64,000 nt of DNA from an uncultured Bacillota bacterium (GTDB lineage Bacteria > Bacillota > Clostridia > Lachnospirales > Lachnospiraceae): NCBI GenBank assembly GCA_958352855.1, contig CATWQE010000005.1, forward strand, positions 25,785-89,784, read 5' to 3'. The translations under genes were made by a program, and so were the position numbers. The number at the start of each line of letters is the position of its first letter. Position 1 is the first letter of the stretch. Below, in pieces: positions 5,953-20,394 of the stretch. The notes below the pieces were generated by a model. That model did not search any database. It was given only the letters and a program-made list of their open reading frames with translations, and had not been told where the DNA came from.

Positions 5953-7650
5953 ATGAAATTTAATTTAGAAGAGATACCTTTTAGTACAAGAGGTTCCTAT
6001 ATGGTATTTTCGAAATTAGGAAAAAAATTTCAGGGAGAAGAGATACAAGAAGGAATTTATTTTCGAAATGTTCATGGTTCAGCTGTGAGTTCACTGGTAG
6101 CAAGAATTGTGCCACAGAAAAATGGACAGGAAATTCCTTATCAATACGAAGCATCTCCTCAAGAAGTAAAAATCTATGATGATGAACATTGTTGCAGGAT
6201 TACCTGGCAAGATGAGAAAACAGTTCTTTTGGAAGGAGATTTGCCATTTTATTTCGATTTTCTGGCAGAGGGCGGTTCTTATACATTTGCACAGCCATGG
6301 AAAGTTGGAAACAGAGATTTTTATCTGGTGAACTGTTTTCGGGGAAATTCAAGGTATATGATTCGAAGTCAAAAGGGAAGTTTGCAGCTAAAACAAAAAT
6401 GGAGAGAAGGAAATGCAGAGTATAGTTATTTATACGTAAATGGGGATGCTCCTTACATGTTGGTTTTGGAAGAAAACTTTGAGGATTGGAAAGACAGAGG
6501 AGAAGACTACGATTATACCTGTGCAGTGCAGAAACAAAAACAAATGTTTGAAGAATTTTATGTTTCGATGCCTTCTGTGCCAGATAAATATCAAGATGCG
6601 GCTAAAATTTCTGCATATGTGGATTGGACAGGTATGGTTTCACCCTGTGGCCTTCTAAAAAGAGAGGCCATGTTTATGTCAAAAAACTGGATGTGTAACG
6701 TGTGGAGTTGGGATCACTGTTTTAATGCCCTGGCATTAGCTTATCATTGTCCTAAGGAAGCATGGGATCAGTTTATGGTATTATTTGATTTCCAAAAAGA
6801 ATCTGGAAATATACCGGACAGTGTTAACGATACCAAAGTGATTCATAATTACTGTAAACCGCCTATTCATGGTTGGACCTTACGAAAGCTTATGAAAGTT
6901 ATGGACTTATCTGTAGAACAATTAAAAGAAGCCTATGAAAAACTAGGTAAATGGACCAGTTGGTGGCTTAATTATAGAGATGAAAATGGAGATGGATTAT
7001 GTGAATATAGCCATGGAAATGATTCTGGTTGGGATAATGCTACAGCATTTGACCATCTTCCGCCGGTCACATTGCCAGATTTAGCAGCCTTTCTTGTGTT
7101 ACAAATGGATGTTCTTAGTGAAGTTGCAGAAAAATTAAATGAACAAGCAGATGCTAAGATGTGGAAAAATCGCGCAAATGAAATGTTAAACAACATGTTG
7201 AATGTTTTGTTTGAAAATGGAAAACCCGTAGCAAGAGCTGGCTTTGATATGCACAAAGTAGAAAATGAAAGTCTGATTCTGTATTTACCTATTATTTTGG
7301 GAAAACAACTTCCAGAAGGAATTAGAAAAGAATTAATTCAGACGTTGGAAAGTGACAAATTTCAGACTTCATATGGATTAGCAACTGAAAGTTGGCATAG
7401 TAAAGAATACGAATCAGATGGTTATTGGAGAGGTCCTATTTGGGCGCCGAGTACGATGCTTATTCTGGATGGACTGAAAGAATGTGGGGAAGATGCATTT
7501 GTAAAAGATATGACAGAGAAGTTTTGTCAACTGATTCAAAAGAGTGGATGTGCTGAAAACTTTGATGCACTTACGGGAGAAGGGTTGAGGGATAGAGCTT
7601 ATACCTGGACGGCAAGTGTAATGCTTGTGATGGCGCATGAGTATTTATAA
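5953..7650 (+). CDS. (alpha/alpha)6-barrel glycoside hydrolase, GH63/MGH-like (putative alpha-glucosidase)
   Basis: 565 aa, no signal peptide. Motifs CNVWSWDHCFNALALA and GNDSGWDNATAF resemble the WxWD and DSGxDN signatures of the GH63 / glucosyl- and mannosylglycerate hydrolase clan. Sits directly downstream of the ABC importer. Confidence 0.45.
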   Translation: MKFNLEEIPFSTRGSYMVFSKLGKKFQGEEIQEGIYFRNVHGSAVSSLVARIVPQKNGQEIPYQYEASPQEVKIYDDEHCCRITWQDEKTVLLEGDLPFYFDFLAEGGSYTFAQPWKVGNRDFYLVNCFRGNSRYMIRSQKGSLQLKQKWREGNAEYSYLYVNGDAPYMLVLEENFEDWKDRGEDYDYTCAVQKQKQMFEEFYVSMPSVPDKYQDAAKISAYVDWTGMVSPCGLLKREAMFMSKNWMCNVWSWDHCFNALALAYHCPKEAWDQFMVLFDFQKESGNIPDSVNDTKVIHNYCKPPIHGWTLRKLMKVMDLSVEQLKEAYEKLGKWTSWWLNYRDENGDGLCEYSHGNDSGWDNATAFDHLPPVTLPDLAAFLVLQMDVLSEVAEKLNEQADAKMWKNRANEMLNNMLNVLFENGKPVARAGFDMHKVENESLILYLPIILGKQLPEGIRKELIQTLESDKFQTSYGLATESWHSKEYESDGYWRGPIWAPSTMLILDGLKECGEDAFVKDMTEKFCQLIQKSGCAENFDALTGEGLRDRAYTWTASVMLVMAHEYL

Positions 7651-7688
7651 CTGACAACACAACAAATAATAAGTAAATAAATTGTACA

Positions 7689-7730
7689 AATACCCCTTTT
7701 CTGATGAAAGAGAGGGGTATTAATTTGTTT
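7689..7730 (+). terminator. Putative terminator after the GH63-like gene
   Basis: AATACCCC (7689-7696) pairs with GGGGTATT (7714-7721), followed by a T-rich stretch. Confidence 0.4.
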
Positions 7731-7766
7731 ATGAATATTATAAGTTCCAATGCATAGAAACAAGAA

Positions 7767-7985
7767 GTGAAAACAATGGAACAATATGATGATATTGATA
7801 CCAGAAGTCCTGGAGATGTGACCTGGCTGATGATACATAGCTTTTCGGAGGAAGAACAGAGATTTGAGCATGAAAAAATACAGAGTGTAGAACAGGTGAT
7901 TTTATCTAATTATGATGAGGTGAAGATAGAGAATGGTCAGGCAAAATTAAGGGCATATGAGACGTTGATAGCCAGGATAGAGTAA
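7767..7985 (+). pseudogene. Remnant of a GH13 alpha-glucosidase (C-terminal fragment)
   Basis: The 72-aa ORF (EQYDDIDTR...DVTWLMIHSFSEEEQRFEH...YDEVKIENGQAKLRAYETLIARIE) aligns by eye to two separated C-terminal segments of the intact GH13 at 8890-10542 (IEKYDDIDTKNY and EVTWMAVHNFSEVEQVFEC...YEERKIEKGKIRLRAYETMILEMGN). Confidence 0.6.
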
Positions 7986-8182
7986 AAGGGGAAATTGTTG
8001 TTTCACAGAGTTTTGTTTTTGTAAAAAAGTACTTGAAAAATGGAAAAAAGCCAGGAAAAACTTTGGGCATATTACGAATTGTAGTATATGAGAAGACATG
8101 GTAAAATCCTATTAAAAGAACAATCGTGTTGCAGGGTGGCTTGACCTTCATTTTATTATACATAGAATGGGGGTGGTGCTGA

Positions 8183-8267
8183 TGAAACATTTTGATTTTA
8201 AAGATTTAATGTCTTTTGGAATGTTCATTTTGTCACTGCTGACATTCATTTATTTGATTTGTCATTA
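8183..8267 (+). CDS. Small hydrophobic peptide, holin-like toxin (Hol_Tox-like, type I toxin-like)
   Basis: 28 aa, MKHFDFKDLMSFGMFILSLLTFIYLICH. Strong RBS GGGGGTGG 5 nt upstream. The pattern (short polar N-terminus, LMSFG, then one TM helix) matches the roughly 30-aa putative holin-like toxin peptides of Firmicutes. Confidence 0.45.
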
Positions 8268-8342
8268 ATGACTTAGAGCATAGAAAAACCACCCGAAACT
8301 TGGCAAGTAGAGAGGTGGCATTTCTATGTTACACTTTATAGG

Positions 8343-8372
8343 TCAACCCCTTGTGGGCGGTTGTTCTTTTTA
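8343..8372 (+). terminator. Putative terminator downstream of the small peptide ORF
   Basis: CAACCCC TTGT GGGCGGTTG hairpin followed by TTCTTTTT. Confidence 0.35.
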
Positions 8373-8889
8373 CATTTATACTATAGCATAATTATAAAGA
8401 GGATTCAATAGAAACAAAAATACATTTTTCTGATTAGGTAAAAATAAAGATAAACAGCAAAAATAACAGAGAGGCGGCACAGCAAATATGAACTATAAAA
8501 TTGCCTTGCTTTAAAAAAAACATTATCGTGAATTTTGTGAGGAAAGAATCAAAGAAAAGATGCAGTGAGTCTCTCAAGGATTGGTATGGATTTTCTGAGA
8601 TTTGAAAGTGATTTGGAGGAAGTAATTCTCCAGGACAGGTTTGCACAAGTGGTTCATGGATATGAGGGAAGATGGAAAAACTTTAAGACCATTGAAGAAA
8701 TTGAAGCAGAGGCAGCAAGAACTTGATGATTTGGAATATGGGAAACAGATTAGCTTTCAAATGGCATTGTATGAATATTCCAGACGGGCAGTTGCAAGCG
8801 TAAAAAAATATTTTAGGGAAGAAATCAGGGAGTAGAAGGATGGTTGCCCGTTCCGCCTATCAATGCTAAAATAAAATAAAAACGGGGAA

Positions 8890-10542
8890 GTGAAAGCTAT
8901 GAAACACGAAAAAGACTGGTACAAGGAACTGGTGATTTATCAGATTTATCCCAGAAGCTTTAAAGACGGAAATGGGGATGGAATCGGTGATTTAAAGGGC
9001 ATGATTGAGAAACTGGATTACCTGCAGAAGCTGGGTGTCAATGCAGTGTGGATGTCTCCGGTTTACGCCTCTCCCAATGTGGATAATGGCTACGATATTT
9101 CGGACTATTTCTCTATTATGGAGGAATTCGGCACCATGGAAGACTGGGAAGACTTTCGGGACGGGGCTCACGCACGGGGGATTGCCATTATTATGGATTT
9201 GGTGCTGAATCATACTTCGGATCAGCACATCTGGTTTCAGGAGTCAAAGAAATCCAGAGAAAATTCATATAGTGATTTTTATATCTGGAAAGACCCGGCA
9301 CCGGACGGCGGCGCTCCCAATGGCTGGATGTCTGTGTTTGGGGGCAGCGCCTGGGAATATGTGCCGGAGCGGGGGCAGTATTATCTTCACTTTTTTGCCA
9401 AGGAGCAGCCGGACTTAAACTGGGACTGTGAAGAAGCCAGGGAGAAAATTTTCGATATAATCCGTTTTTGGAACGAAAAGGGTGTGGATGGCTACCGGGT
9501 TGATGCTATCAGCTATCTGGATAAGGGACTGGACGGAAGGGCTGATTTTCAGGAACCCATGGGAACCGTAGCCTGTGCGAATCTGGAAGGGACCCACCGC
9601 TATATACGGGAGATGGCAGCCAAGACCTTTGCCCCTGGAAACCTCATGAGTGTAGGAGAAGTCAATATAAATACAGAGCAGGATGCCAGGAATTATTCCA
9701 GTGCCGGAAGCGGGGAGTTTCACATGGCCATTCCTTTTGTGCCGCCTATTGTAGAGATAAAAACCTGGTCTCCGGAAAAACTGAAACGAGATTTGGAGAA
9801 GGATTATCAGGTGCTGCAGGAAGATGGCTGGTGGGCCAGATTCCTGAGCAATCACGACAAACCACGGCAGGTATCCCTCTATGGAAATGACGGCCCTTAC
9901 TGGAAGGAATCTGCCAAGATGCTGGCCTGTTATCTTCATACGCTGCCGGGAACACCTTTTGTCTATCAGGGAGAAGAACTGGGCATGACCAATGTGCGGT
10001 TTGAATCCATAGAAAAATATGATGACATTGACACAAAGAATTATTATAAGACCATGATAAGTGAGGGAGCTTCCAAAGAGGATGCACTGGCAGAATCCCA
10101 GATTATCAGCAGGGATAATGCCAGAACCCCTATGCAGTGGGATGATACGGTTTATGCAGGATTTTCCAGGCATAAGCCCTGGCTAGGCGTGAATCCCAAT
10201 TATATGGAAATCAATGTTGCCAGCCAAATGGAGGATGAAACGTCGGTGTTCCAGTTCTACCGGAAACTCATTGCCCTTCGCAAGGAAAATCCTGTGATGA
10301 TACATGGGGATTTTGCCCTGTGCTGCCCAAAGGAAGGCCCGGTGATTGCCTATACCAGAAGCCTGGGCGAGGTGACCTGGATGGCTGTTCACAATTTCTC
10401 AGAAGTAGAACAGGTATTTGAGTGCAACAGGGTTCAGGGAACAGAGAAAGTAGTTGTGTCCAATTATGAGGAAAGAAAGATAGAGAAAGGGAAGATTAGA
10501 CTGAGAGCATATGAAACAATGATATTGGAAATGGGGAATTAA
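8890..10542 (+). CDS. GH13 alpha-glucosidase / oligo-1,6-glucosidase family
   Basis: Canonical GH13 regions: YQIYPRSFKDGNGDGIGD, DLVLNHTS, GVDGYRVDAISY (nucleophile Asp), GEVN (acid/base Glu), FLSNHDKPR. 550 aa, cytoplasmic. Confidence 0.9.
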   Translation: MKAMKHEKDWYKELVIYQIYPRSFKDGNGDGIGDLKGMIEKLDYLQKLGVNAVWMSPVYASPNVDNGYDISDYFSIMEEFGTMEDWEDFRDGAHARGIAIIMDLVLNHTSDQHIWFQESKKSRENSYSDFYIWKDPAPDGGAPNGWMSVFGGSAWEYVPERGQYYLHFFAKEQPDLNWDCEEAREKIFDIIRFWNEKGVDGYRVDAISYLDKGLDGRADFQEPMGTVACANLEGTHRYIREMAAKTFAPGNLMSVGEVNINTEQDARNYSSAGSGEFHMAIPFVPPIVEIKTWSPEKLKRDLEKDYQVLQEDGWWARFLSNHDKPRQVSLYGNDGPYWKESAKMLACYLHTLPGTPFVYQGEELGMTNVRFESIEKYDDIDTKNYYKTMISEGASKEDALAESQIISRDNARTPMQWDDTVYAGFSRHKPWLGVNPNYMEINVASQMEDETSVFQFYRKLIALRKENPVMIHGDFALCCPKEGPVIAYTRSLGEVTWMAVHNFSEVEQVFECNRVQGTEKVVVSNYEERKIEKGKIRLRAYETMILEMGN

Positions 10543-10559: not shown

Positions 10560-11408
10560 ATGAAAGATAGATATACGATATCCGAGATGGCCAGATTTTT
10601 TAATGTCTCCAGCCAGACCTTACGTTATTATGATAAAATTGGTCTTTATCGTCCGGCAGTGGTGAATCGGGAGAACGGATACCGCTACTATAGTTATGAG
10701 CAGTTTTTTACATTGTCTCTGATTATACAATTGAAAAAACTGAATTTTACACTGGATGACATTCAAAAATACATTCAGATTAAAGATGTAGGATATCTGG
10801 AAGAAATTTTGAAAAAAGAACAAAGGGTTATTGAGGAGGAACTGGTAGAATTACAGAAATTAAAAATAAAAAATCAGATGCTTTTGAAAAAGATTCAACT
10901 TTCCAGAGATGTGGAAGAACAGGAAACCATAGAATTACGTAGAGAGACAGAACGGTATACATATCGGATTCCGATAAATTTTGAAATACAGAATATTTAT
11001 CAGTATATTAAGCTGATGTATGATTCTTATTTACGGGAATTACCAGATGCAGCGGCGGCAGAGCACCGGGAAGTAGTGCTGCAAATTCGAAAGAATAATT
11101 TGCAGCAGAAAAAATTTAGAATTTATAACAGCATTGGATTTTTTATTGATCAGAATGACATTAAGCCAGGATTTGAAATCCATGTGATTCCAGAAGGGGA
11201 TTATGTCACAGGTTATCATATGGGGGCGTATGATACGATTCATCATACGTATGAGAAATTGTATGCATATATTGCAGAACACGCCTATAGTATCGTGGGG
11301 GATTCTTTAGAATTTTCCATCATTAGCATCGCATTAACAAATCAAAAAGAAGATTTTATTACAGAAATTCAGATTCCGGTGAAAATACAGGGAGACAGTA
11401 CACAGTAA
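10560..11408 (+). CDS. MerR family transcriptional regulator with C-terminal effector domain
   Basis: N-terminal MerR HTH (YTISEMARFFNVSSQTLRYYDKIGLYRP), then a coiled-coil region, then a C-terminal domain of about 150 aa. Confidence 0.8.
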   Translation: MKDRYTISEMARFFNVSSQTLRYYDKIGLYRPAVVNRENGYRYYSYEQFFTLSLIIQLKKLNFTLDDIQKYIQIKDVGYLEEILKKEQRVIEEELVELQKLKIKNQMLLKKIQLSRDVEEQETIELRRETERYTYRIPINFEIQNIYQYIKLMYDSYLRELPDAAAAEHREVVLQIRKNNLQQKKFRIYNSIGFFIDQNDIKPGFEIHVIPEGDYVTGYHMGAYDTIHHTYEKLYAYIAEHAYSIVGDSLEFSIISIALTNQKEDFITEIQIPVKIQGDSTQ

Positions 11409-11431
11409 AATTCTGTGTACTGTCTTTTTTT
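11395..11431 (+). terminator. Rho-independent terminator of the merR-family gene
   Basis: ACAGTACACAG pairs with CTGTGTACTGT (11-bp stem, loop contains the TAA stop), followed by CTTTTTTT. Confidence 0.7.
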
Positions 11432-11441
11432 GTGTGGCTAT

Positions 11442-11488
11442 TTGAAAATTGGAGTATAAACTTTATAGTAACTATAAAGTTTATACTC
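11442..11488 (+). promoter_or_regulatory. Perfect 18-1-18 palindrome (37 bp), candidate operator, with TTGAAA upstream
   Basis: GAGTATAAACTTTATAGT-A-ACTATAAAGTTTATACTC at 11452-11488. Every arm position is complementary, checked by hand. TTGAAA lies at 11442-11447. Confidence 0.5.
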
Positions 11489-11532
11489 TGTTAAAAAAAG
11501 ATAAAAAGTAGAAAATAAAAGAAGAAATATCA

Positions 11533-11563
11533 TTGACTTTATAGTTACTATATAGTTTATACT
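11533..11563 (+). promoter_or_regulatory. MerR-type promoter: -35 TTGACT, 19-bp spacer carrying a dyad, -10 TATACT
   Basis: TTGACT at 11533-11538. The spacer contains CTTTATAGT-T-ACTATATAG, a degenerate copy of the upstream palindrome. TATACT at 11558-11563. A 19-bp spacer with an internal dyad is the hallmark of MerR-controlled promoters. About 37 nt upstream of the hydrolase ATG. Confidence 0.5.
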
Positions 11564-11599
11564 TTATTGTAGTAAATAAGTAAACGGAGGAAACGAAGT

Positions 11600-12490
11600 A
11601 TGAAGAGAACATTGAACGTAAGCATCATTCAATCGCCAATGAATCCGGATACAACGGAAAGTCTGCAGTATTTAAAAGAGCAGGTAGCACGATTAATGAG
11701 TGGCTATGTGAAACCAGAATTGATTATTGGTGTGGAACATGGACTTGGCAGAGATTTGCATCGGATTCCTGGGAAAACCATTGAATTTTTAGGAGAAATT
11801 GCCAGGAAATATGGGATTTATTTTATTCCGGGAACTATGTCAGAAATGGCTGGGGAGGAGGAAAAAGACGGTTTTTATAATACGTGTCCTGTCTTTGGAC
11901 CGGACGGCAGTCTGTTGAGAGCATATCGAAAAAAAGTGCCTTTTCGTCCGGGAGAACCTTCTCGGCCAAGTGAAGATGATGAATATTGTATTTTTGAAAT
12001 TCCAGAAAAACATATTAAAGTGGGGGTTCTCATTTGTTATGATCAGTTTTTTCCGGAAATTGCAAGAACATTGGCATTAGAAGGCGCAGAACTTTTGGTA
12101 TGTCCTGCACTGGATCCTATGGAATATGACTACATTTGTGACATCCTGCCAAGAGCAAGAGCACTGGAAAATGAGCTGTTTTACATTTGGACTTGTGGAA
12201 CTGGAAATACCCCGTCTGGAACCTGCTGTGGACATTCTACCATTGTAAATCCAGAGGGAGGGGTGGTATATAAGTGTGGAAGTCTGCCTATGGTATATAC
12301 AGCAGTGTTAGATTTTGATGAGGTTATCAGAAAACGGATTTATGGACGAGATCAGCATTTGAATTCTCTAAGAGAATTTAAAGTGAAATATCCATACAGT
12401 GGAAGACTGGAAGAAGCGCCGGTATATGAGAATATGCCGGGGCTTACCAAAAATCCGCAGGAATATCTGGAGAGAATCTCTGAGGATTAG
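11600..12490 (+). CDS. Carbon-nitrogen hydrolase family protein (nitrilase/amidase superfamily)
   Basis: CN-hydrolase signatures including the catalytic-Cys region KVGVLICYDQFFPE. RBS GGAGGAAACGAAG. Confidence 0.8.
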   Translation: MKRTLNVSIIQSPMNPDTTESLQYLKEQVARLMSGYVKPELIIGVEHGLGRDLHRIPGKTIEFLGEIARKYGIYFIPGTMSEMAGEEEKDGFYNTCPVFGPDGSLLRAYRKKVPFRPGEPSRPSEDDEYCIFEIPEKHIKVGVLICYDQFFPEIARTLALEGAELLVCPALDPMEYDYICDILPRARALENELFYIWTCGTGNTPSGTCCGHSTIVNPEGGVVYKCGSLPMVYTAVLDFDEVIRKRIYGRDQHLNSLREFKVKYPYSGRLEEAPVYENMPGLTKNPQEYLERISED

Positions 12491-19887: not shown

Positions 19888-20394
19888 ATTAGCGATTTAA
19901 TGATCAACGAACAAATCAGAGACAGAGAAGTACGTCTTATTGGCGCAAACGGGGAACAGCTTGGAATCATGTCCGCCAGAGATGCGCAGAAACATGCAAT
20001 GGAAGCAGGCTTGGATCTTGTAAAGATTGCTCCTACAGCAAAGCCGCCGGTTTGTAAAATAATTGACTATGGCAAGTATAAGTACGAATTAGCCAGAAAA
20101 GAAAAAGAAGCTAAAAAGAAACAGAAAACCATAGAAATTAAAGAAGTGCGTTTATCCCCGAATATTGAGGAAAACGATTTGAACACAAAGGTCAACAATG
20201 CCAGAAAGTTCCTTACCAAAGGAAATAAAGTCAAAGTCACCCTGCGTTTCAGGGGCAGAGAAATGGCACATATGCAGAGCAGCAAACATATCCTGGATAA
20301 GTTCGCTGAGATTCTGTCCGACATTGCGGTTGTGGAAAAAGCACCGAAGGTAGAAGGCAGAAGCATGACTATGTTTTTGACAGAAAAACGTTAA
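19888..20394 (+). CDS. infC: Translation initiation factor IF-3 (probable ATT start)
   Basis: IF-3 N- and C-terminal domains (EVRLIGANGEQLGIMS, KVKVTLRFRGREMAH). In-frame ATT at 19888 lies 7 nt after GGAGGTG. The first ATG (19900) is 19 nt from the RBS. A non-AUG start is the conserved autoregulatory feature of infC. Confidence 0.8.
   Translation: MSDLMINEQIRDREVRLIGANGEQLGIMSARDAQKHAMEAGLDLVKIAPTAKPPVCKIIDYGKYKYELARKEKEAKKKQKTIEIKEVRLSPNIEENDLNTKVNNARKFLTKGNKVKVTLRFRGREMAHMQSSKHILDKFAEILSDIAVVEKAPKVEGRSMTMFLTEKR

Follow-up and report, generated by a model that had tools for sequence, protein, structure and literature searches.

What occupies a 1.2-kb gap between two glycosidase genes in otherwise densely coded DNA? 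We addressed this question for a stretch of 64,000 nucleotides (nt), hereafter called the window, from an uncultured bacterium of the Lachnospiraceae (GenBank assembly GCA_958352855.1, contig CATWQE010000005.1, positions 25,785 to 89,784 of the forward strand; coordinates are those of the window unless another locus is named). Open reading frames (ORFs) of at least 110 amino acids (aa) span 91% of the window, and positions 7651-8889 form its largest stretch without coverage by such ORFs (1239 nt, the runner-up having 351 nt). The low-coding island that a preliminary description, made from the sequence alone, had placed here is thereby borne out. The same description saw in this island the remnant of a GH13 gene and a small hydrophobic, Hol_Tox-like type I toxin with a probable antisense partner. 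Our results support this central proposal and extend it to a widespread module with both coding and RNA-structure signatures. Besides the decayed fragments of two genes, the island holds a complete and self-contained cassette of ~330 nt (~8079-8410) for a putative toxin and a predicted antisense RNA. Judging from sequence features and from analogy with characterised pairs, we consider it likely that this cassette represents an intact type I toxin-antitoxin module of the same kind as TxpA/RatA and BsrG/SR4. The elements of such a module are present and intact, the unit is conserved and discrete, its ORF evolves as a coding sequence, a helix joining the two ends of the toxin transcript covaries, and both promoters are conserved. 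These points are presented in turn below.

A short membrane peptide under purifying selection

The putative toxin gene lies on the plus strand. Its ORF of 28 codons (MKHFDFKDLMSFGMFILSLLTFIYLICH; 8182-8268, with the coding part at 8182-8265 and the stop codon at 8266-8268) was identified from the sequence and its conservation. The peptide had been given correctly in the preliminary description, with coordinates (8183-8267) that differ by one base at each end. Its product combines a charged N-terminus with a single hydrophobic helix (residues ~10-26), and the excellent ribosome-binding site (RBS) noted earlier is indeed found 5 nt before the ATG (GGGGGTGG, 8169-8176). With 28 aa (type I toxin peptides being <60 aa), one predicted transmembrane helix and an RBS of its own, the peptide has the format of a type I toxin.

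Members of the family follow the consensus M-x(1-6)-FDFKDLM-x-FG-x-F-(I/L)-LALLTF-(V/I)-F-x-F-x-(K/R/H) and are 27-33 aa long. Among 75 unique homologous coding sequences, the mean pairwise differences at codon positions 1, 2 and 3 were 0.22, 0.06 and 0.41, respectively. The ratio of nonsynonymous to synonymous differences (pN/pS) in this set was 0.20 in the toxin frame, compared to 0.80 and 4.0 when the two remaining frames were read. The toxin ORF is under purifying selection and evolves as a protein-coding sequence.

Upstream of the ORF, a predicted sigma-A-type promoter (8079-8107, plus strand) could be read from the sequence. It is composed of the -35 element TTGTAG (8079-8084), a 17-nt spacer and the extended -10 element TGgTAAAAT (8099-8107), and its elements TTG and TGnTAnAAT are kept across 128 copies of the unit, the conservation of which begins at this point. 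A simple promoter scan missed this site because the -35 element matches at only 3 of 6 positions. The sigma-70 site that the scan reported at 8141-8168 was rejected as the toxin promoter, since the start would fall inside the RBS and the site overlaps the conserved structure of the 5' untranslated region (UTR). Transcription is predicted to start at ~8114, giving a 5'UTR of 68 nt; the full-length alignment to the BsrG model of Rfam also begins at 8114. At the other end of the gene, the sequence and its conservation point to an intrinsic terminator on the plus strand (8344-8371), which consists of the hairpin CAACCCC-TTGT-GGGCGGTTG (8344-8363) followed by the run TTCTTTTT. It begins 76 nt past the toxin stop codon, in good agreement with the hairpin previously placed about 75 nt downstream. 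We also noted a minus-strand ORF of 94 aa (7906-8190) that spans the space from the GH13 remnant to the toxin start. This ORF overlaps the conserved toxin promoter and 5'UTR and is probably spurious.

Folding of the predicted toxin mRNA

The toxin messenger RNA (mRNA) predicted from folding and covariation has a length of ~259 nt (8114-8372, plus strand). Its fold has a minimum free energy (MFE) of -87.4 kcal/mol (z = -6.47 versus shuffled controls). In this structure, the 5'UTR (8114-8147) pairs with the 3' end (8340-8370), and a small hairpin is formed upstream of the RBS. The structure was tested on an alignment (A2) of 72 copies that are less than 90% identical to one another. RNAalifold recovered the helix between the 5'UTR and the 3' end (8118-8127 with 8357-8366), in which both sides had changed in 13, 10, 3, 11 and 3 sequences at five pairs; in all, compensatory changes were found in 8 of the 14 pairs of this helix. 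When the MFE structure of the window copy, which represents one member only, was projected on the 72 copies, 80.3% of the cells were paired, compared to 39-50% if the partners were slid by 1-3 columns. The covariation score was 0.136 as against 0.115 ± 0.002 in shuffles, none of which reached the observed value (0/500).

The helix is continued by UGCAGGG/CCCUUGU (97% paired) and UGACC/GGUCA (89% paired), and this continuation holds conserved G·U pairs, which are possible in plus-strand RNA alone. The terminator bases can alternatively pair with the 5'UTR, and it is this long-range pairing that the covariation supports. A second contact involves the segment with the RBS and the AUG, which pairs with ORF codons ~14-18 (88% paired, with double changes at three pairs). 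Since the RBS and AUG are paired with ORF codons and the 5'UTR with the 3' end, the full-length transcript should be poorly translated.

A convergent promoter for a predicted antisense RNA

The earlier suggestion that the peptide is paired with an antisense RNA gains support from a conserved convergent promoter and a minus-strand terminator, which together would bound an RNA of ~93 nt (8281-8373, minus strand). The predicted promoter (8380-8408, minus strand) scored 9 of 12 matches plus TG in the promoter scan. It is composed of the -35 element TTGAAT (8408..8403), a 17-nt spacer and TGc TATAGT (8388..8380), with a predicted start near 8373. Of 129 copies, 87 had a promoter with at least 10 of 13 matches where it was expected, compared to only 3 of 129 shuffled controls, and the conservation of the module stops just beyond the antisense -35 element. 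The terminator would be provided by a 3'UTR hairpin (CATAGAAAAACCACCC / GGTGGCATTTCTATG; 8279-8328, with 8279-8294 paired to 8314-8328), which was found by the terminator scan and in the folds of both strands. Read on the minus strand, this hairpin has the properties of an intrinsic terminator, with its stem at 8318..8289 and a U-run at 8288..8284. Both arms are invariant or nearly so across the copies, the 5' arm having been part of the search pattern.

Fully complementary to the 3'UTR and terminator of the toxin mRNA, the predicted antisense RNA would end ~13 nt beyond the stop codon of the toxin ORF. Its fold comprises two hairpins (-29.6 kcal/mol, z = -3.4). Running from 8373 to 8281, the RNA would cover the last ~90 nt of the predicted mRNA (8114-8372), in line with the partial overlap at the 3' side that T1TAdb lists for the TxpA/RatA and BsrE-G-H families.

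The module is widespread and independent of its context

We scanned one genome per species with a pattern derived from the 3'UTR and terminator. Among the matches listed are at least 120 genome stretches with the 330-nt unit at ~80% identity. Nearly all of these come from Lachnospiraceae, with Blautia, Dorea, Enterocloster, Mediterraneibacter, Hungatella, Acetatifactor, Faecalicatena and [Clostridium] symbiosum as carriers. The recurrence of the ORF together with its RNA context in so many genome stretches excludes a chance ORF. The unit was also found by tblastn and blastn on three mobilizable plasmids of Enterocloster bolteae, including pCbo51 (L010:4613-5218), which holds two tandem copies with different C-termini. 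Viral contigs of IMG/VR contain 19 further copies, the ORFs of which are intact in all cases, and no match was obtained among the phages of INPHARED and GenBank. Head-to-tail tandem arrays have a period of ~330 nt. The locus L057:1045-3136 of E. aldenensis contains seven copies with three peptide variants, one of them frameshifted, and L094 gave three pattern matches and seven profile hits.

The limits of the unit are sharp. Across 128 copies, conservation spans from the toxin -35 element to the antisense -35 element, the flanks being unrelated, and only the part 8096/8118-8390/8414 of the window is common to other loci. The nearest flanking ORFs (148 neighbours) belong to 156 different Pfam families, and no enrichment of integrase, transposase or phage genes was seen among them. 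On metagenome contigs, the exact extended ORF of 33 aa occurs with differing downstream genes, and in other surroundings (L006-L009, L077) synonymously different sequences encode the exact window peptide. Contigs of the same species that include the upstream glycosidase gene (L001-L005) end within the module, at positions 8146, 8204, 8371 and 8440, while L006-L009 begin at the equivalents of 8165-8167. Such breaks inside the module, in independent metagenome assemblies of this species and of others with the same peptide, fit its nature as a multi-copy repeat, and the full island is consequently rarely assembled. A search of the window with the family profile identified a single copy, the one described here. 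A further match (20180-20239, minus strand, 'LALLTFVF', profile E = 0.006) is antisense to infC and was dismissed as a chance match rather than a second module.

Approximately 95 of 129 copies have an intact toxin gene. The other ~34 lack the promoter, RBS and N-terminus of the toxin and have kept the antisense unit with an equally good promoter; because detection was anchored in the antisense region, no asymmetry can be claimed from these numbers. Taken together, the 330-nt unit presents itself in these comparisons as a discrete, context-independent and widespread autonomous module. We found no support for the idea that it has stabilised the carbohydrate locus: its copies adjoin unrelated genes, and two homologous blocks consisting of the GH13 remnant and the module have lost the toxin start.

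Relationship to known type I systems

Hol_Tox (PF16935) is the only Pfam match of the window peptide (19.8 bits, E = 7e-4), and 28 of 40 family peptides match this model at E <= 0.01. Of five peptides scored singly, including that of the window, four reached 13.5-21.2 bits and one subtype passed at 25.1 bits. This subtype is also the only family peptide with a database name, as it appears in nr as 'putative holin-like toxin'. Judged by these scores, the peptide family seems to sit at the edge of the Hol_Tox model. BsrG and TxpA obtained 34.5 and 31.3 bits on the same model; since both score, Hol_Tox can be equated with the TxpA/BsrG family. In an exact-sequence look-up, 7 of 10 family peptides, again including that of the window, were absent from the protein collection; most are shorter than 30 aa. 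On the RNA level, BsrG (RF01412) is the only recurrent Rfam match, and the alignment is full-length and in register in three independent copies (20.7, 28.2 and 26.7 bits). The matches of the peptide to ComI and to a PHROG family of unknown function are weak echoes of a shared hydrophobic core.

In its predicted layout, the module resembles bsrG/SR4 from the B. subtilis prophage SPbeta: the genes converge, the predicted antisense RNA matches the 3' portion of a toxin mRNA that is ~260-290 nt long, the RBS is sequestered within this mRNA, and the short single-helix peptide bears an N-terminal ...LM.F(G)... motif. However, the peptides are 27-33 aa long and have no lysine-rich C-terminus, whereas BsrG has 38 aa, and the host range is Lachnospiraceae here and Bacillus there. 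A further difference is the covariation-supported helix of ~30 bp between the 5'UTR and the 3' end, for which we know of no description in the case of bsrG. SR4 pairs at the 3' end of bsrG, leading to decay by RNase III and to tighter sequestration of the RBS (PMC8309996). The txpA/RatA pair of the B. subtilis skin element likewise has an antisense RNA overlapping at the 3' side. TxpA has 59 aa, and RatA, with ~220 nt, is several times the size of a typical hairpin pair and greatly exceeds the antisense RNA of the module in predicted length. RNase III silences both txpA (with RatA) and yonT (PMC3531473).

Fozo et al. (2010) widened the TxpA family to 118 members, a few of which are called 'holin-like toxins', and TxpA-like sequences were found in Clostridiales (PMC2887945). 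Soutourina's review names Clostridium bolteae for TxpA-like sequences (PMC6563280). Plasmids of this species carry the module described here. A full-text search of the paper collection available to us found none that prints the motif of the family peptide. The 'type I toxin' mentioned in a paper on a C. clostridioforme prophage turned out to mean SymE, which is unrelated.

According to T1TAdb, the antisense RNA overlaps the toxin ORF in TxpA/RatA and in BsrE-G-H (PMC8594479), whereas the predicted antisense RNA of the module stops ~13 nt past the stop codon and stays off the ORF. In this respect it resembles Fst/RNAII (par) and SprA1. The predicted closure of the full-length toxin mRNA by a long-distance 5'-3' interaction with an occluded RBS is a feature in common with hok/Sok and aapA1/IsoA1, and has been described for the full-length mRNA of aapA1 (PMC5416894). 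The peptides show no similarity to Fst, Hok or AapA1, though, and direct repeats of the Fst type, complementary to the translation start, are absent. The mRNAs of hok and aapA1 are moreover activated by 3' processing, a step for which the present data on the module gave no evidence.

Proposed mechanism

Based on these comparisons, we propose the following model. The extended -10 promoter would drive a toxin mRNA of ~260 nt (~8114-8372), which would encode the 28-aa single-helix membrane peptide (8182-8268). The tight fold of this mRNA, in which the 5'UTR is engaged with the 3' end and the RBS and start codon with codons of the ORF, would keep translation low. The convergent promoter just downstream would drive the antisense RNA of ~93 nt (~8373 to 8281), perfectly complementary to the 3'UTR and terminator. 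By analogy with bsrG/SR4 and txpA/RatA, this RNA would pair with the 3'UTR, outcompete the wobble-rich 5'UTR strand and thereby displace the 5'UTR from the 3' end. The resulting duplex of ~90 bp would be a substrate for RNase III, leading to decay of the mRNA, and translation would stay off. Once the unstable antisense RNA is lost, the peptide would be made and would damage the membrane or the cell envelope. With regard to the synthesis of both RNAs, the toxicity of the peptide, its neutralisation by the antisense RNA and the nuclease involved, we argue here from the characterised pairs.

One might go further and regard the module as a distinct, previously uncharacterised type I family of Lachnospiraceae and related gut Clostridia, with a regulatory logic of its own that combines a circularised mRNA, strand displacement and trans-protecting copies. 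The helix of ~30 bp between the 5'UTR and the 3' end would then circularise the toxin mRNA, and its 5' strand would be a wobble-rich mimic of the 5' segment of the antitoxin. Rather than acting by simple duplex formation, the antitoxin would displace the mRNA's own 5' end and so expose the mRNA to decay. The many toxin-less copies with a good antisense promoter would serve as 'anti-addiction' antitoxins, which protect in trans when a plasmid or prophage that bears the module comes in. We offer this extension tentatively and are inclined to doubt it.

Points against the assignment and alternative explanations

A number of results weigh against an assignment of the module to the TxpA/RatA-BsrG/SR4 kind. 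The window peptide stays below the gathering score of Hol_Tox (19.8 vs 23.3 bits), so that of the Hol_Tox match claimed in the preliminary description a suggestive similarity stands, this being the only Pfam match at all, and formal membership does not. The RNA of the window is far below the threshold of the Rfam BsrG model (20.7 vs 55 bits, all copies ranging from 20.7 to 28.2), the only NCBIfam match is ComI (NF052249) with 18.6 bits at a cut-off of 55, and a comparison of the family profile with BsrG alone by hhalign was weak (probability 4.5%). The predicted antisense RNA, the terminator of which ends at ~8281-8284, does not overlap the toxin ORF (stop codon at 8266-8268), unlike in the layout that T1TAdb describes for TxpA/RatA and BsrE-G-H. 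A read-through antisense transcript would overlap the ORF, but this is not the form that is predicted, and both transcripts and their ends are themselves predictions. The -35 element of the toxin promoter (TTGTAG) is poor, and the peptide ends in a single H, K or R, without the C-terminal cluster of charged residues that is common in type I toxins. As for the comparative data, the sequences used for pN/pS were picked with a permissive peptide motif, which causes some bias towards conservation, and the copies were gathered by a pattern within the 3'UTR, the columns of which are invariant by design and thus unable to show covariation.

Three other explanations have to be considered. The peptide could be a small membrane protein that is conserved for a regulatory or otherwise non-toxic role, comparable to ComI and tuned by a cis-antisense RNA, rather than one half of a toxin-antitoxin pair. 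ComI is the sole NCBIfam match, far below the threshold as it is (18.6 vs 55), most copies sit among ordinary chromosomal genes, and the toxicity of the window peptide is itself argued from analogy; moreover, some family members studied by Fozo et al. were non-toxic on overexpression, and the toxicity of TxpA was species-specific (PMC2887945). Against this, about one quarter of the copies have lost the 5' part of the toxin gene and retained the antisense unit with an equally good promoter, tandem arrays as well as plasmid and viral-contig copies exist, the mRNA is heavily locked, and the sole similarities in Pfam and Rfam point to TxpA/BsrG toxins. All of these are hallmarks of type I toxin loci and argue against a housekeeping small protein, and we consider this first alternative improbable.

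It is also very unlikely that the window copy is a silent relic, intact in sequence but unexpressed or non-functional like the pseudogenes on either side. Its -10 element, 5'-3' helix, RBS, ORF, both terminators and antisense promoter all match the family consensus, and the exact peptide recurs with synonymous differences in the other contexts mentioned above (L006-L009, L077). This has to be set against its location in gene debris, its weak -35 element, a 7-nt insertion in the 5'UTR relative to the family consensus, and the toxin deletions that its homologous blocks in L133 and L134 have already undergone. Finally, the 330-nt unit might be a repeat at the DNA level, namely a miniature mobile element with transposase sites in its imperfect inverted repeats of ~30 bp (8114-8147 and 8340-8370); its ORF and promoters would then be incidental. 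In favour of this, the unit is multi-copy, dispersed and sometimes tandem, it breaks metagenome assemblies, and it carries inverted repeats at its ends. Yet the conserved G·U pairs and compensatory changes in the pairing of the repeats fit plus-strand RNA alone, the ORF has a protein-coding substitution pattern, and conservation reaches beyond the repeats to the two promoters. Among the neighbours there is no enrichment of transposases or integrases, and neither conserved flanks nor target duplications were seen. We therefore attach hardly any weight to this explanation. The reading as a type I toxin-antitoxin module is the one that we retain below.

Gene remnants and neighbouring genes

Outside the module, the island is debris, namely a C-terminal GH13 pseudogene and a 5' remnant of the gene for a 447-aa protein. 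The first remnant (7767-7985, plus strand) was recognised by BLASTP against the neighbouring GH13 gene (8890-10542) and by Pfam. Its ORF of 72 aa is 58% identical to residues 489-545 of the neighbour over 57 aa (E = 6e-22), and a second, short piece has 7 of 14 residues identical to residues 371-384 (E = 0.003). Its description as a collage of two C-terminal segments is hence real, the match to 489-545 being strong and that to 371-384 only weakly supported. On the DNA level, 7798-7970 shares 67% identity with 10352-10524. Pfam assigns SusG_C alone to the ORF (E = 1e-7), and the catalytic Alpha-amylase domain (PF00128) was absent from it in the same scan. The ORF is a remnant, not an enzyme, and its two matching pieces (~371-384 and 489-545) imply an internal deletion of ~100 codons in addition to the loss of the catalytic domain.

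Other assemblies contain short homologues of this remnant as well (50-81 aa). At two loci, L133 and L134, a block equivalent to 7800-8460 of the window, comprising the GH13 remnant plus the module, is present with 90% nt identity. It is located after a dlt-like operon in the former case (L133:6009-6603) and directly before a MerR/GyrI regulator in the latter (L134:68-551); neither L133 nor L134 shares the first collage piece (7767-7800). Both blocks have suffered independent deletions of the RBS, start and N-terminal half of the toxin and have kept the antisense promoter and terminator, and by their sequence they look like orphan antitoxin loci. In L134, the GH13 remnant is divided between two frames, indicating a decaying fragment. 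Since the remnant and the module are fused in L133 and L134 in differing contexts, the fusion is older than these lineages, and remnant and module have been moved or recombined together.

With 58% identity on the aa and 67% on the nt level, the remnant is not a recent duplicate of the neighbour but belongs to a different, older GH13 lineage. As the same remnant plus module recurs at 90% nt identity in two genomes elsewhere, we favour an origin by recombination and deletion from an older GH13 copy other than the neighbour. Of the duplication or recombination followed by deletion that had been suggested for this region, the second alternative is thus favoured. No module-free allele of the locus was found, as a search with the exact GH13 protein gave only a 2.7-kb contig starting within the island. 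Two module copies adjoin GH13 genes, which are unrelated to the remnant. The region 10560-12469 of the window, with the genes for a MerR/GyrI-like regulator and a CN_hydrolase protein, is syntenic with L134:583-2488 (79% identity). There, the module remnant abuts the regulator directly without a GH13 gene between them, so that the intact GH13 gene represents a presence/absence difference between relatives.

The second remnant (8488-8711, plus strand) was detected by tblastn with the product of L134 3948-5291, a protein of 447 aa without a Pfam family. Residues 1-26 correspond to 8488-8565 and residues 100-150 to 8559-8711 (73% and 84% identity, respectively), the middle and the last two-thirds being missing. 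The short ORFs in this remnant belong to no Pfam, NCBIfam or PHROG family, and two short hypothetical homologues were all that was found for them. In L134, the full 447-aa gene is located just downstream of another partial module 3' end; both remnants are thus linked to module copies in other genomes. Pieces of the N-terminal region of the 447-aa protein are encoded among the short ORFs at 8565-8835, and judged by eye only, the C-terminus of this protein resembles a DNA-binding helix-turn-helix.

The gene upstream of the island (5953-7650) encodes an MGH1-like glycoside hydrolase. A hairpin resembling an intrinsic terminator (7694-7717, plus strand; a 9-bp stem and a T-rich tail in the terminator scan) follows 44 nt past its stop codon and closes the upstream ABC-transporter/MGH1-like glycosidase operon. 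On the downstream side, the intact GH13 gene (547-550 aa) is followed by the MerR/GyrI-like regulator. In public assemblies, the GH13 gene starts with ATG 8899 (547-aa product) instead of GTG 8890 as in the mechanical ORF list, and the gap is therefore, if anything, 9 nt longer. A promoter-like site precedes this gene at 8844-8872 on the plus strand (TTGCCC-17-TAAAAT with TG), which is a consensus match from the promoter scan only.

Implications

To our knowledge, almost all work on type I systems concerns Enterobacteria, Bacillus, Staphylococcus, Enterococcus, Helicobacter and C. difficile. The kind of system described here is already known; the present subfamily is widespread in gut Lachnospiraceae, mostly unannotated, and lies below the thresholds of Pfam and Rfam. 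Current annotation mostly misses it because the peptides are shorter than 30 aa, most of them are absent from protein collections, and the Pfam and Rfam scores are sub-threshold. The practical consequences are modest, as systems of this kind are well known and we do not claim a function beyond the generic one. For the locus itself, the module accounts for an otherwise 'empty' 1.2-kb gap and for the breaks of metagenome assemblies at this place. For abundant commensals of the human and animal gut, such as Blautia, Dorea, Enterocloster, Mediterraneibacter and Hungatella, it provides a sharply defined family, whose ~130 natural sequence variants are available for studying mRNA locking and antisense control.

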